Positions 36,687-44,149 of a stretch of 64,000 nt of DNA are shown here, piece after piece. The DNA is from Bacteriovorax stolpii. Lineage in GTDB: Bacteria; Bdellovibrionota; UBA1018. The stretch is from contig CAMAQA010000001.1 in the NCBI GenBank assembly GCA_945860415.1, positions 29,304-93,303 on the forward strand, in the 5' to 3' direction. The position numbers and the translations under genes are program-made. The notes beneath the pieces are model-generated. The model was not told the DNA's origin. It searched no databases and worked only from the letters and a program-made list of their open reading frames with translations. Each line of letters starts with the position of its first letter. Positions within the stretch are counted from its first letter, which is position 1.

Positions 36687-37816
36687 TGGCCCACGCCGGC
36701 GAGCGCATAAATGATCTCGAAGGCAATCAGCACGATGATGATGATCTCGAGCAGCATGCTTCGCTGCGTGTTTACCTCTCCCTGGAGAAGTTCGGAAACC
36801 TGGGCGAGGATGTTCATCTTGCGGCTGATACTGCCCTGCCAGTCTGCGACTCGGAATCTTCGTATTGCACCTCGAAAGGCCCTGGCGAGGTAGAAGTCGC
36901 CGACGACCTTCAGCGAGTTTTCCACTCGTCCAAGAAATTCCGAGAATTCGATGAACCTGGTGCTCGCCTCGTGCGACAGTTTCCAGAACGGCAGCCGGCC
37001 CTTGTTCCTTCGTCGTGCCTCGATGCTGTCATAGAGCAGGCCGAGGCGACGGTCGATGAGGTCGTCATAGTAGCGCATCTCAAGCAGGTGAGTGACGGCA
37101 AACTCCAGCACGTCCGGAATGTCACGCATTCCGCTCGGCTCCCAGACTAGGGCGCTATTCCAGTCGATGACCGCAAGGTCGTTGTCGCGGTAGGAGTACG
37201 TGTATTCCGCGAGCGCCTCGCGATTTTCCTTCGACAGGTTTCGATCCGTCTCTCCGAGCATCAGCGCGGGAATGTCAGCGCGTTCCGAAAACTCGACGGC
37301 GTTTCGGGCGCCTTCAACGTGTTCGAGGAAATAAATCGTGTAGTCCTCGAGGCCCTCCCATTCAGAAGGCTGTTGCAACGCATCCTGCAGGCGTCCGGTG
37401 AGTTCCTTGGCACGCTTGCGCGCGAAAGCGTCAATCTCGCTGTTGGCCTCGATGGCCGCCGACTTGCCCAGTAGCTGGTTCCAGTCAGTTCCTTCAGGAA
37501 TCGTCAGTTGGAACAGGATGGAGAGCACGCCGTAATCCCAGATCCTCGCCGTGGTCTCTGCTGCGTACTCCCGGTTCATGATCGTGATCGATGTTTCACC
37601 GAGCGAAATCGTGATCGGCGCATTCTTGATCACCACGGCCTGTCCGGTGGGGCGTGACAGGCGAAGCCGCTCCTTGGGGCTGGCCTCCTGGGTCAGGATC
37701 TGTTCGACCTTCGACAGGTTCACCTCTTCGGCGATGTCGAAACAGCGGTAGAGCATGATCGTGCCCTTGCGGATCTTGATCGTTTCGCCGGAATACGTCT
37801 CGGGCTTCGGGTTCAT
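36683..37816 (-). CDS. DUF155 / RMD1-YagE-like family protein with a C-terminal TM anchor (tentative)
   Basis: About 377 aa, soluble body plus a single C-terminal TM helix (LLEIIIIVLIAFEIIYALAG), the topology typical of DUF155. A 4-nt overlap with upstream ykgJ indicates an operon. Confidence 0.35.
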   Translation of the reverse strand: MNPKPETYSGETIKIRKGTIMLYRCFDIAEEVNLSKVEQILTQEASPKERLRLSRPTGQAVVIKNAPITISLGETSITIMNREYAAETTARIWDYGVLSILFQLTIPEGTDWNQLLGKSAAIEANSEIDAFARKRAKELTGRLQDALQQPSEWEGLEDYTIYFLEHVEGARNAVEFSERADIPALMLGETDRNLSKENREALAEYTYSYRDNDLAVIDWNSALVWEPSGMRDIPDVLEFAVTHLLEMRYYDDLIDRRLGLLYDSIEARRRNKGRLPFWKLSHEASTRFIEFSEFLGRVENSLKVVGDFYLARAFRGAIRRFRVADWQGSISRKMNILAQVSELLQGEVNTQRSMLLEIIIIVLIAFEIIYALAGVGH

Positions 37817-38250
37817 GGTCGATCCTTTCGTGGCGTCGCCTTCAGAGGATTCGCGGGACAGAACCCCGGCCGAGGTCCGATGGCCGGAAATGTCCTGCAG
37901 ACCTCCGGACGCTTGTCATACACGCCGCATCGCCGGTCGGCGCCAAGATAGCGGCAAACCCCCGACTCCGTCTGCCGGAGAATGAAGGACCGTGAGTTTT
38001 CGATGGCCGCCTCGATAACGCTCCGCTCCAGAAGAAGGCGAGTGATCTGGCGATAGGGCAGCTGCGACTGCTCGAGAGTCAACAGATCCAGTTGAGTGAG
38101 GTCGGTGAGGCTGACCTCGACGGGGAGGGTACAGCAAAGAGCCTGGCACCCCTCGCAGAGCCCGTCCTGATAGGACGTCCACGTCGACGGTCGGCCGGGA
38201 TCCCTTCGGGCGCTCAGGGCTAAACTCTTAAAATCCAATGATTTAGTCAT
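37813..38250 (-). CDS. YkgJ-family cysteine-cluster protein (CxxCxxCC Fe/Zn-chelating domain)
   Basis: CEGCQALCC cluster and a second Cys group (CRYLGADRRCGVY...C) as in the UPF0153/YkgJ family. Confidence 0.55.
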   Translation of the reverse strand: MTKSLDFKSLALSARRDPGRPSTWTSYQDGLCEGCQALCCTLPVEVSLTDLTQLDLLTLEQSQLPYRQITRLLLERSVIEAAIENSRSFILRQTESGVCRYLGADRRCGVYDKRPEVCRTFPAIGPRPGFCPANPLKATPRKDRP

Positions 38251-38869: not shown

Positions 38870-40083
38870 AACTTCCGATCTTCCTCGATTATCATTCGAC
38901 GACACCCATGGACCCTGCGGTCCTGGAAACGATGCTGCCGTATTTCACGCAGACCTTCGGCAACGCCGCGAGCCGGAATCACGAGTACGGATGGACTGCG
39001 GAAGCGGCGGTCGAAAAGGCACGCACGCAGGTTGCTTCGCTGATTGGCGCGAGCGACAAGGAAATCATTTTCACGAGCGGCGCCACCGAGAGCAACAACC
39101 TGGCGATCCAGGGCGTGGCACAGATGTACAAGGAAAAGGGCCGCCACATCATCACTTCGCCGATCGAGCACAAGGCAGTCCTGGATACCTGCCAGTACCT
39201 CGAGAGCATCGGCTTCGAGCTCACCACGCTTCCAGTCGACCAGTACGGCCGAGTCTCGGCCGAGGATGTCGTGAAGGCCATTCGTCCCGACACGATCCTG
39301 GTGAGCGTGATGTTCGCCAACAACGAAATCGGCTCGATCAATCCGATCGCCGAGATCGGCAGGGTGTGCAAGGAACGCGGAGTCGTCTTCCACACGGACG
39401 CCGTCCAGGCCTGTGGCAAGATTCCGGTCGACGTCGAGAAGATGGGCATCGACCTGCTCTCGCTGACGGCACACAAGATGTACGGACCCAAGGGCGTTGG
39501 CGCCCTTTATGTCCGCCGGCGCAATCCGCGCGTGCGCCTCTCTCCGATCGTCCACGGTGGCGGCCACGAGCGCGGGATGCGCTCCGGCACCCTGAACGTC
39601 CCGGGAATCGTCGGCTTCGGCAAGGCGGCGGAGATCGCCAAGGCTCGCCTGCAGCTCGACACCGAGCACTCGTCGCGCCTGCGCGACAAGCTCTGGAATG
39701 CGATCCGTTCTCGCGTGGACGAGGTCCACCTGAACGGCCATCCGACCGAGCGCCTGCCGCACAACCTCAACGTCAGCTTTGCGTATGTCGAAGGCGAGTC
39801 GCTGATGATGGGAATCAAGGAACTGGCCGTCTCGAGCGGTTCAGCCTGCACCTCGGCAAGCCTTGAGCCGTCGTACGTACTCAAGAGCATCGGCGTGGGC
39901 GACGAACTCGCGCACTCGAGCATCCGCTTCAGCGTTGGACGGAACACGACGGACGAGGAGATTGATTTCGCGATCGAGCGCGTCGTCGCGACCGTGAAGA
40001 AACTTCGTGAGTTGTCGCCCCTTTACGAAATGGTGAAGGAAGGCGTGGATTTGAAATCGGTCGTCTGGACCGGACATCACTGA
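38866..40083 (+). CDS. iscS: Cysteine desulfurase IscS
   Basis: Class V aminotransferase fold with a PLP-binding Lys, catalytic loop SSGSACTS and C-terminal SVVWTGHH. Confidence 0.95.
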
Positions 40084-40100
40084 GAACCTCAGGAGGTACC

Positions 40101-40499
40101 ATGGCATACACCCAGAAAGTCATCGATCACTACGAGAACCCCCGGAACGTCGGCTCGCTCGACAAAACCGCGAAGGATGTCGGCACCGGACTGGTCGGCG
40201 CCCCGGAATGCGGCGACGTGATGAAGCTGCAGATCCAGGTCGACGAGAAGACCCGCGTCATCACCGATGCGAAGTTCAAGACCTTCGGCTGCGGCAGCGC
40301 GATCGCCAGCTCCTCGCTCGCCACCGAGTGGGTGAAGGGAAAGACGGTCGAGGAGGCCCTGCAGATCAGGAACACGGACATCGTCGAGGAGCTCTCGCTT
40401 CCGCCGATCAAGATCCACTGCTCGGTCCTTGCCGAAGACGCGATCAAGGCCGCGATCCAGGACTACATCAAGAAGAACGACGGAGAGAACAAGTCATGA
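40101..40499 (+). CDS. iscU: Fe-S cluster assembly scaffold IscU
   Basis: Three conserved Cys plus the LPPVK-type motif (LPPIKIHCSVLAEDA). Confidence 0.95.
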   Translation: MAYTQKVIDHYENPRNVGSLDKTAKDVGTGLVGAPECGDVMKLQIQVDEKTRVITDAKFKTFGCGSAIASSSLATEWVKGKTVEEALQIRNTDIVEELSLPPIKIHCSVLAEDAIKAAIQDYIKKNDGENKS

Positions 40500-40942
40500 G
40501 TGAAGCCATGCAGGACCAGGGCATGCAGGACCAGGGCATGCAGGACCAGGGCATGCAGGACCAGGGCATGCAGGACCAGGGCGCTGCCGGCGTTCCGGCG
40601 GCGAAGCCGACCTCGCTCACGATCAGCGACAAGGCCGTGACCGAAATCAAGCGCATCCAGGCCAGTGACCCGACCGCGGTCAATGCGAACCTCCGCGTGA
40701 TGGTGGTCGGCGGCGGATGCTCGGGCATGAGCTACAAGCTGGGCTTCGATGCGCAGCCACTCGCGGCCAGCGACAAGACGTTCGAGAAGGACGGCGTGAA
40801 GGTCGTGTGCGACGCCAAGTCGTTCCTGTACCTTGCCGGCACGGAGCTCGATTTCACCGACGGCCTGAATGGCACCGGATTCGTGTTCAAGAACCCGAAC
40901 GCGAAGCGCACCTGTGGCTGCGGTTCCAGCTTCTCCGCCTAA
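40496..40942 (+). CDS. iscA: Fe-S cluster insertion protein IscA (A-type carrier) with an N-terminal (MQDQG)x5 repeat extension
   Basis: HesB/IscA core with the C-x42-CGCG motif (CGCGSSFS). The start overlaps the iscU stop (ATGA). Confidence 0.85.
   Translation: MSEAMQDQGMQDQGMQDQGMQDQGMQDQGAAGVPAAKPTSLTISDKAVTEIKRIQASDPTAVNANLRVMVVGGGCSGMSYKLGFDAQPLAASDKTFEKDGVKVVCDAKSFLYLAGTELDFTDGLNGTGFVFKNPNAKRTCGCGSSFSA
40508..40582 (+). repeat. Perfect 15-bp x 5 tandem repeat (ATGCAGGACCAGGGC) inside the 5' end of iscA, encoding (MQDQG)x5
   Basis: Read directly from the sequence: five identical in-frame units. Confidence 0.9.
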
Positions 40943-41582
40943 GGCGTGCGTCCACTGCGGGGCGGGGCCTTCCGGAGCGCTTGCTCCTCACGCATGTGCG
41001 GCCTGCGGAGCTCCGCAGCCGCTGCCGTCTGAGGCTAGCCGCGATCCGTTCGAGGTCTTCAGCGTGCCACGGCGTTTTGCGCAGGATCGGGCCGCGCTCC
41101 AGAAGCGCTTCCTTGACCTGAGCCGGGCCCTGCACCCGGATCGCTTCGCCCGCGCCCCTGAGGGGGTCCGGCAGGCGTCGCTGGAGCGGATGGGGCTGGT
41201 GAATGAAGCCTATCGCCTCCTGACGGATCGAAATGCCGTGCGAGACTACCTCCTGGCCGAGGCGGGAATTGCGGGAAAACCGGTTCGGAGCATGGATGAC
41301 CTGGAGCTCGCCGAGCGCTGGTTTGAGCTGCAGGAACAGGTCATGGAGCTCGATGACCCGCGCGAACCGGTCGAGAAGTTCGCGGGCGAGCTTCAGCTGC
41401 TGATCGTCTCGTCGCAGGAGCGGATGCAGGAGTTGGAGAAGAAGTTTGATGCCGGAGAGGAGTCCGGCAGCGAAGCGGCGGAAACGCTTCGTGAAATGTC
41501 GGCGGCGGCGCAGAGGGGCAACACGCTCCGATCGATGCTCCGGGATGTGGAGCGCTTGAAGGCCCGAGTGGGCCTGGGCTAA
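40869..41582 (+). CDS. hscB: Fe-S co-chaperone HscB with an N-terminal tetracysteine (CxxC...CxxC) zinc-finger module (start uncertain: ATG 40869 or in-frame GTG at about 40914; either overlaps the iscA 3' end)
   Basis: J-domain-like region with HPD (LHPDRF) and a C-terminal helical HscB domain. CVHCG-x11-CAACG lies upstream of the J-domain. Confidence 0.7.
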   Translation: MAPDSCSRTRTRSAPVAAVPASPPKACVHCGAGPSGALAPHACAACGAPQPLPSEASRDPFEVFSVPRRFAQDRAALQKRFLDLSRALHPDRFARAPEGVRQASLERMGLVNEAYRLLTDRNAVRDYLLAEAGIAGKPVRSMDDLELAERWFELQEQVMELDDPREPVEKFAGELQLLIVSSQERMQELEKKFDAGEESGSEAAETLREMSAAAQRGNTLRSMLRDVERLKARVGLG

Positions 41583-43452: not shown

Positions 43453-43746
43453 ATGCCAAAAGTCACTTTCCTTCCCTTGAAGCAGACCGTCGAAGCCCGT
43501 GCCGGAGACAGCATCCTTGAAACGGCGCTTGCCCATGACATTCCCCTGCACCATGCCTGCGGCGGTTACTGCGCCTGCACGACCTGCCAGATTCGCGTGG
43601 TCGAGGGGGCCCAAAATCTTTCGGCCATGGAAGAGGAAGAAACGGAGCGCCTCGAGCGCGCCGATGACGTCTTGCCCCAGTCACGCCTCGGCTGCCAGGC
43701 CAAGGTCAACGGCGATGTCATCGTTGAAATGGTCCACGTCGACTGA
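43453..43746 (+). CDS. fdx: [2Fe-2S] ferredoxin (isc-type Fdx)
   Basis: Cys ligand pattern C-x5-C-x2-C...C (HACGGYCACTTCQ...GCQ). About 97 aa. Confidence 0.8.
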   Translation: MPKVTFLPLKQTVEARAGDSILETALAHDIPLHHACGGYCACTTCQIRVVEGAQNLSAMEEEETERLERADDVLPQSRLGCQAKVNGDVIVEMVHVD

Positions 43747-43759
43747 GAGCAGGAACACC

Positions 43760-44149
43760 ATGTCGGAAAACAATTCTCCCGCACGACCCTTCAAGATCAC
43801 GTTTGTTTCTCCGACCGGAGACTCCCAGGTCATCGACGTCGACGCTGCTGCACGTCCCAGCTGCGGAACGGGAGAACCCGGAAGCATCCTGGACATCGCT
43901 CTGGCGCAGGGCGTTGAGATTGATCATGCCTGTGGTGGAGTTTGCGCCTGCTCCACTTGTCACGTTAAGATCAAGGCCGGCCTCGCTTCGTGCAATGAGA
44001 GCACGGAGGATGAAGAGGACCAGCTGGACAAGGCGCCCGGAGTCACCAGCCAGTCACGACTGGCCTGTCAGTGCATCCCGAGCGGACAACAGGACCTTGT
44101 TGTCGAAATTCCCGGCTGGAATCGCAATCGAGTTCGGGAAGGAGCCTGA
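43760..44149 (+). CDS. Second [2Fe-2S] ferredoxin (paralog)
   Basis: HACGGVCACSTCH...LACQ repeats the same ligand pattern. About 129 aa. The ATG at 43760 lies 87 codons into the longer track ORF (43499), which overlaps fdx in another frame. Confidence 0.7.
   Translation: MSENNSPARPFKITFVSPTGDSQVIDVDAAARPSCGTGEPGSILDIALAQGVEIDHACGGVCACSTCHVKIKAGLASCNESTEDEEDQLDKAPGVTSQSRLACQCIPSGQQDLVVEIPGWNRNRVREGA

Follow-up and report, generated by a model that had tools for sequence, protein, structure and literature searches.

The isc operon and its A-type carrier

The window, by which we mean the whole 64-kb stretch of DNA that was analysed, contains an isc operon with the gene order iscR (Rrf2), iscS, iscU (NifU_N), iscA, hscB (DnaJ-type), hscA and fdx (ferredoxin), which is the same in relatives and gives the gene studied here the genomic context of an IscA-type protein. 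The NifU_N scaffold gene iscU (Pfam, E = 6.1e-55) occupies positions 40101-40499 of the + strand directly 5' of iscA, an ORF for an A-type Fe-S cluster carrier of 148 amino acids plus stop codon at 40496-40942 on the same strand. The iscA product consists of MSEA-(MQDQG)x5-AAGVPAAKPTSL followed by the HesB/IscA core, and reads from its tail to its end MSEA(MQDQG)5AAGVPAAKPTSLTISDKAV...CGCGSSFSA.

The assignment of the gene to iscA, already made in a preliminary description of this DNA, is borne out by its Pfam match, by three cysteines and by its position in the operon. The core domain (40613-40924, +), which PDB matches and an alignment also delimit, corresponds to Pfam Fe-S_biosyn (PF01521) over residues 40-143, with E = 3.4e-20 and 72.7 bits (cut-off, 26.3), and the match spans positions 2-109 of the 110 in the profile, i.e., the full-length domain. 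In a 40-sequence alignment, C75 (codon at 40718-40720), C140 (40913-40915) and C142 (40919-40921), all on the + strand, are invariant and form the C-x(n)-C-x-C pattern of the cluster ligands. Sequence matches in the PDB to A-type carriers—1NWB, 2APN, 1S98/1R94 and SufA 2D2A, with E from 2e-26 to 4e-11—all run from query residue 40-41 onward. The protein shares PF01521 and a C-x64-C-x-C motif with IscA from E. coli (1S98, 1R94), aq_1857 from Aquifex aeolicus (1NWB) and HI1723 from Haemophilus (2APN), and the operon slot between iscU and hscB is the same. The main difference is that the aligned stretch of these solved carriers starts at their own residues 2-10, whereas the window protein adds 40 N-terminal residues, 25 of which are a perfect pentapeptide repeat. 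On sequence grounds, we regard the window protein as an IscA that is orthodox apart from 40 residues added at its N-terminus, and its Fe-S binding and transfer are predicted.

Other parts of the locus have peculiarities of their own. Two consecutive 2Fe-2S ferredoxin (Fer2) genes lie 3' of hscA, at 43453-43746 and ~43760-44149 (+), where a classical isc operon would have just one fdx; a Fer2 pair is also called in the related loci L001, L003 and L006. Divergently upstream of iscR, a gene for a small Cys-rich protein is found at 37813-38250 (-), and the gene at the same place in L003 (315-755, -, 146 amino acids) is annotated PF03692 (CxxCxxCC). This Cys-rich protein may be a conserved accessory of the isc locus. 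As for hscB, gene callers let it start in relatives with MPQPL, for a product of 190 amino acids, at a position where the window lacks a start codon. Upstream of the called start, an in-frame peptide C[V/A/E]HCG...APH[A/C]C[A/T/P][A/S]CG shows amino-acid-level conservation between the window (hscB region 40869-41582, +, and especially 40947-41010) and five relatives (L001, L002, L003, L005 and L006). The true start of hscB is probably further upstream than called in relatives, and the conserved peptide suggests an N-terminal CxxC...CxxC module of zinc-ribbon-like type, comparable to that of eukaryotic HSC20. By the same evidence, hscB may begin within the 3' end of iscA, where the window offers ATG 40869 and GTG 40914 as candidate starts.

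A perfect coding array in a tail predicted to be disordered

Five copies of ATGCAGGACCAGGGC lie head to tail, without a mismatch, at 40508-40582 (+), where they encode (MQDQG)x5 as iscA codons 5-29; the copies start at 40508, 40523, 40538, 40553 and 40568, and the last one ends at 40582. Direct reading, an exact search and TRF all confirm the five identical in-frame 15-nt copies that had been claimed. TRF reports 40507-40582 with a period of 15, 5.1 copies, 100% matches and a score of 152, against a score of 61 for the runner-up tandem repeat in the 64-kb window. With five 15-nt units of 100% identity in the iscA frame, the array is an in-frame coding tandem repeat. The claim that iscA begins with the repeat holds insofar as the array is near the start, but four non-repeat codons come before it: the gene opens with the MSEA codons GTGAAGCC, and the array begins 12 nt after the iscA start, at 40508. 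Outside the array, the unit does not occur in the 64-kb window with up to two mismatches; at this tolerance, 0.21 matches are expected by chance and 0/100 shuffles reach five. Every unit junction creates the palindrome GCATGC. Two ORFs in other frames, (CRTRA)x5 at 40500-40640 (+) and (PWSCM)x5 at 40468-40728 (-), were rejected as by-products of the repeat that are absent from relatives, although naive ORF callers could report these spurious ORFs.

The array lies in a 40-residue N-terminal tail (40496-40615, +) that is predicted to be disordered ahead of the carrier fold, on the evidence of AlphaFold and of homologue tails. In an AlphaFold2 model built on the 40-sequence alignment, residues 1-41 have no secondary structure, and the mean pLDDT is 63, 53, 45 and 63 in the four successive 10-residue blocks of the tail, as opposed to ~90 in the core. 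No tail column is conserved in this alignment. Our protein homologue search covered 5.8 billion proteins, and tails were surveyed in the best 120 homologues, 119 of which could be measured: the overhang is 1-2 residues in 85/119 and 3 residues in 26, while polar low-complexity tails of 16-37 amino acids are found in 26 of the best 120, mostly the closest relatives. At 40 amino acids, the window tail is the longest among the homologues measured. Homologue tails consist to 85% of A/S/T/Q/P/G/E/N and are slightly acidic, and their differences in length keep the reading frame. The window tail, with five Met and five Asp at 5-residue spacing and a net charge of -5, has the properties of a disordered terminal extension, i.e., polar low complexity, pLDDT of 45-63, variable length and poor conservation. 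Judging from the model, from PDB carriers that align only from residue 40-41 and from the short overhangs of homologues, the tail would be dispensable for the fold. The preliminary description called the repeat unusual for IscA, which is true of the perfect repeat, since it is unique, but not of the polar tail, which is a feature of the clade. A literature search for IscA with repeat tails returned no relevant match. Met makes up 1% of the residues in homologues' tails, yet the amplified unit starts with Met after AGGA, which formally leaves some room for a translational or a metal effect.

The start of translation is most likely the conserved ATG at 40496, with coupling to the termination of iscU, as conservation and the Shine-Dalgarno (SD) sequence indicate. 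The end of iscU reads ...AAGTCATGA, and the iscA start codon at 40496 overlaps the iscU stop codon in an ATGA (40496-40499, +), a translational-coupling arrangement that is kept in relatives. Inside the end of iscU, 8 nt 5' of the iscA ATG, lies a GGAGAG Shine-Dalgarno (40482-40487, +) that is invariant in 7/7 aligned sequences (alignment columns 43-48). It pairs with the canonical anti-SD at -6.6 kcal/mol, within the span of the other operon genes (-3.8 to -11.6). In 7/7 sequences, conservation covers the SD, the ATGA overlap and the eight nucleotides that follow, although just the first three bases after the ATG are shared with iscU, and the ATGAGTGA[A/G]GC context before the repeat is likewise kept in 7/7. 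Of the "five alternative starts" proposed earlier, what stands is that there are formally five in-frame ATGs; compared with the conserved SD at 40496, they are weak. Ahead of the ATGs of units 2-5 lies AGGA, spaced by 7 nt (-5.0 kcal/mol), a value reached by 28% of all + strand ATGs, and that of unit 1 has a predicted SD pairing of -2.5 kcal/mol. At the corresponding unit position, ACC or ACG (Thr) replaces ATG in 4/5 closest relatives. Internal initiation at the unit ATGs is no more than a formal possibility, with an SD match that is weak and of a common value.

The homologous site in relatives and the age of the array

Related isc regions were fetched as DNA (87 loci), and the start region of iscA was aligned for seven sequences. 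Nucleotide identity in the isc region, measured over the 1.3-6.4 kb aligned per locus, is 83-87% between the window and loci L001-L005 and L007. The best value, 87%, is to L007, which belongs to a Lake Mendota MAG ('Bdellovibrionia bacterium'), and other GTDB matches are labelled Oligoflexia, Bacteriovoracaceae or Bdellovibrionota. We take L001-L005 and L007 to be different species in roughly one genus with the window. Outside the window itself, its species appears not to have been sampled: the protein collection, metagenome contigs and GTDB genomes, where the species genomes reach 85% at best, yielded no same-species sequence, and an exact look-up of the IscA protein gave no record. Exact DNA scans of JGI metagenome contigs with the left junction plus unit and with two units gave 0 matches. 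Among the 5.8 billion proteins, the best match has 89% identity, with one match of shorter coverage at 91%, and no near-identical IscA with another repeat number was present.

The five closest relatives at the DNA level encode proteins of 133 amino acids, 15 amino acids or exactly three units shorter than the window protein. In the DNA alignment, a single 45-nt gap lies opposite the window array in every relative, with colinear flanks. The tailed IscA proteins P0001-P0004 and L007, all from uncultured freshwater Bdellovibrionota and with a protein identity of 85-89%, share with the window the operon, the MSEA start and a Q/N/D-rich pentapeptide pair, but they have two diverged units (4-7/15 nt apart) where the window has five identical ones. 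The closest four proteins read MSEA-IQNQ[N/D]-[T/M]QDQA-G..., while P0004 instead reads MSEA-TQNQD-THEQT-G...; downstream, VPAAKPTSL of the window corresponds to AP..KPTSL in the closest relatives. In relatives, where the preliminary description proposed to look for Q/D-rich tails, the homologous site has a diverged Q/N/D-rich pentapeptide pair. In L007, whose tail is MSEA-IQNQG-TQDQA-TAGAPAAKPTSL, the two units ATCCAGAACCAGGGC and ACGCAGGACCAGGCC differ from each other at 4/15 positions and each from the window unit at 2/15, and TRF detects a 1.9-copy, 85% repeat at the homologous site. In L001-L005, the two units differ at 4-7/15 positions. The unit ATGCAGGACCAGGGC itself was not found in any of the 87 fetched loci. 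Copy number therefore differs between related genomes—five units in the window against two diverged units in five related species—and this is a difference between species only.

In 485 kb of related isc loci, TRF revealed no comparable array in another iscA, the only signals being the weak two-unit repeat of L007 and a duplication in a more distant locus (L087, Logan SRR30923182). The protein encoded there, P0115, has the tail METTNTNSNSNTNSN... with a tandem duplication of its own (L087 270-304; period 18, 1.9 copies, 94%, 6-nt sub-period) that encodes TNTNSNSNTNSN. This independent duplication implies that repeat-driven growth of the IscA tail is recurrent.

That perfect identity reflects a recent expansion, as first proposed, is supported by the five closest relatives, which have exactly two diverged units. 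Comparison with the relatives shows an old, decayed two-unit 15-nt duplication right after MSEA as the ancestral state, to which the window lineage has added three units, with all five becoming homogenised. The homogenised set includes the first and last unit, whose counterparts differ in every relative. Because these outer units are also identical, one triplication is insufficient, and their identity calls for concerted evolution through cycles of expansion and contraction, or else for additional point changes. Homogenisation of both outer units could also mean selection for the MQDQG unit. Divergence from L007 is ~13%, and 4/30 in the non-repeat part of the tail. Since the split, ~5 substitutions would be expected in the array along the window lineage and 0 are seen (P ~0.007 by a hand Poisson estimate), which implies that the species split long predates the array or its last homogenisation.

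The sequence of events would be as follows. The ancestor of this genus-level clade already carried an imperfect two-unit 15-nt duplication after MSEA; misaligned pairing of units during replication (slipped-strand mispairing), or unequal recombination, may then have added three units. Repeated expansion and contraction would have homogenised all five, and the tail would have grown from 25 to 40 residues, remaining flexible, acidic and polar, with an outcome that is presumably neutral or nearly so. Replication slippage is most simply the origin. Since a unit is five codons long and the Fe-S-binding fold does not include the tail, the effect would be on length only and likely neutral, and a neutral or nearly neutral change is what we consider most likely. 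Overall, we think it quite probable that a tandem expansion in frame, young and confined to this lineage, gave rise to the array, as a coding minisatellite/VNTR in the disordered, fast-evolving tail of an orthodox IscA.

Length variation, rival readings and significance

Haemophilus is among the genera with SSR contingency loci for phase variation. In the contingency loci of Neisseria and Campylobacter, slipped-strand mispairing takes place in perfect repeats (PMC5084427, PMC3025981), a process that they share with the window array; the switching logic, however, is not shared. Their units are of 1-7 nt, either non-multiples of three or located in promoters, and thereby produce on/off switching, of which a 15-nt unit in an ORF is incapable. 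The suggestion that the locus is phase-variable must therefore be withdrawn: as 15 nt are five codons, no change in copy number shifts the frame or silences the gene, and length alone can change, in steps of five amino acids. The array lies inside the ORF and contains no promoter-like or terminator-like site. Copy-number variation in length within the species is plausible. A closer parallel is provided by bacterial in-frame coding VNTRs, in which units are a multiple of three and slippage or unequal recombination changes length without breaking the frame, as in the window array. In the pe/ppe genes of M. tuberculosis, structural variants are biased towards in-frame ones (PMC12817950). Classical VNTRs are mostly in surface or secreted proteins, or are promoter repeats, whereas the window array is in a cytoplasmic housekeeping Fe-S carrier.

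We consider it unlikely that five units are an assembly artefact or a wrong copy number, with the true units fewer or more and perhaps the ancestral two. In a short-k de Bruijn graph, a perfect tandem array of 75 nt does become a loop, the searches found no same-species sequence to confirm five units, and all five closest relatives are two-unit; arrays of this length are, however, normally spanned by single 150-nt reads. The outer units are 2-4 nt off the units of relatives, and a mis-traversed two-unit locus would not give five identical units with clean flanks. The ORF is also in frame, and the 64-kb sequence is otherwise contiguous with the operon intact. If the array is real, it might be functional in itself, as a length-tunable tail in which the number of MQDQG units sets the dosage or lifetime of IscA, either through engagement by an AAA+ protease (Lon) or through weak internal starts, where four extra weak SD+ATG sites would uncouple synthesis of IscA from that of IscU. 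Such a tail would fit what is known in E. coli, where proteolysis makes all four A-type carriers, IscA among them, unstable, and where a lon mutant stabilises IscA partly and ErpA fully (PMC12974527). Its predicted disorder, the AGGA 7 nt before the next ATG and the homogenisation of all units would also be in keeping with it. Nevertheless, we give it little credence, because the tail sequence is not kept in relatives, with the unit Met missing in 4/5 closest (ACC/ACG); because the internal SD strength is commonplace while strict conservation marks the upstream start with its SD; and because tail length is not known to affect stability in any A-type carrier. A slippage 'dial', in which tail length or weak internal starts would set IscA half-life or synthesis and provide heritable, reversible and stepwise Fe-S control, is distinctly improbable.

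Metal binding by the tail is a further idea, for which Met-rich 'Mets' motifs of copper proteins are an analogue, and IscA has itself been proposed as an iron binder. The regularly spaced Met and Asp of the negatively charged tail, together with Gln, might then form a low-affinity Fe or Cu tract feeding or protecting the carrier. This is very unlikely in our view, considering that neither Met nor the spacing is kept in any relative, that Thr is at the first codon of the unit in 4/5 closest relatives and Met accounts for only 1% of homologue tail residues, that Cys and His are lacking and that an array so young is no established functional module of the clade. Least credible of all, and extremely improbable, is a function of the DNA or RNA itself, be it an array of protein-binding sites, a regulatory RNA fold or a coding sequence in a different frame or strand. 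The junction palindromes and the existence of alternative-frame ORFs could be cited in its favour, but relatives are without the array, and the alternative ORFs owe their existence to the repeat and overlap a conserved gene. Moreover, the RNA fold of 40466-40625 is no better than that of shuffles (z = -1.1), the array folds no better than shuffles as single-stranded DNA (z = -1.5), and an Rfam scan of 39800-41400 found no family at E <= 1.

A young in-frame expansion thus being the reading that we prefer, the array joins the known in-frame coding repeats as a further case, located in a disordered tail and in a gene that is an unusual host, and is most likely an ordinary, harmless length variant. 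As such, it offers a datable case of how a disordered tail grows, in which an old imperfect duplication seeds slippage that is followed by homogenisation and expansion. It could also serve as a VNTR marker for typing strains in this uncultured freshwater lineage of Bdellovibrionota, and the five in-frame ATGs after the true iscA start are a warning for gene callers. The locus gains in importance only if tail length affects the stability or dosage of IscA, for which the Lon sensitivity of E. coli A-type carriers (PMC12974527) is the point of reference. Were the 'dial' to exist, it would give a predatory or freshwater bacterium stepwise, heritable control over how its Fe-S clusters are delivered.
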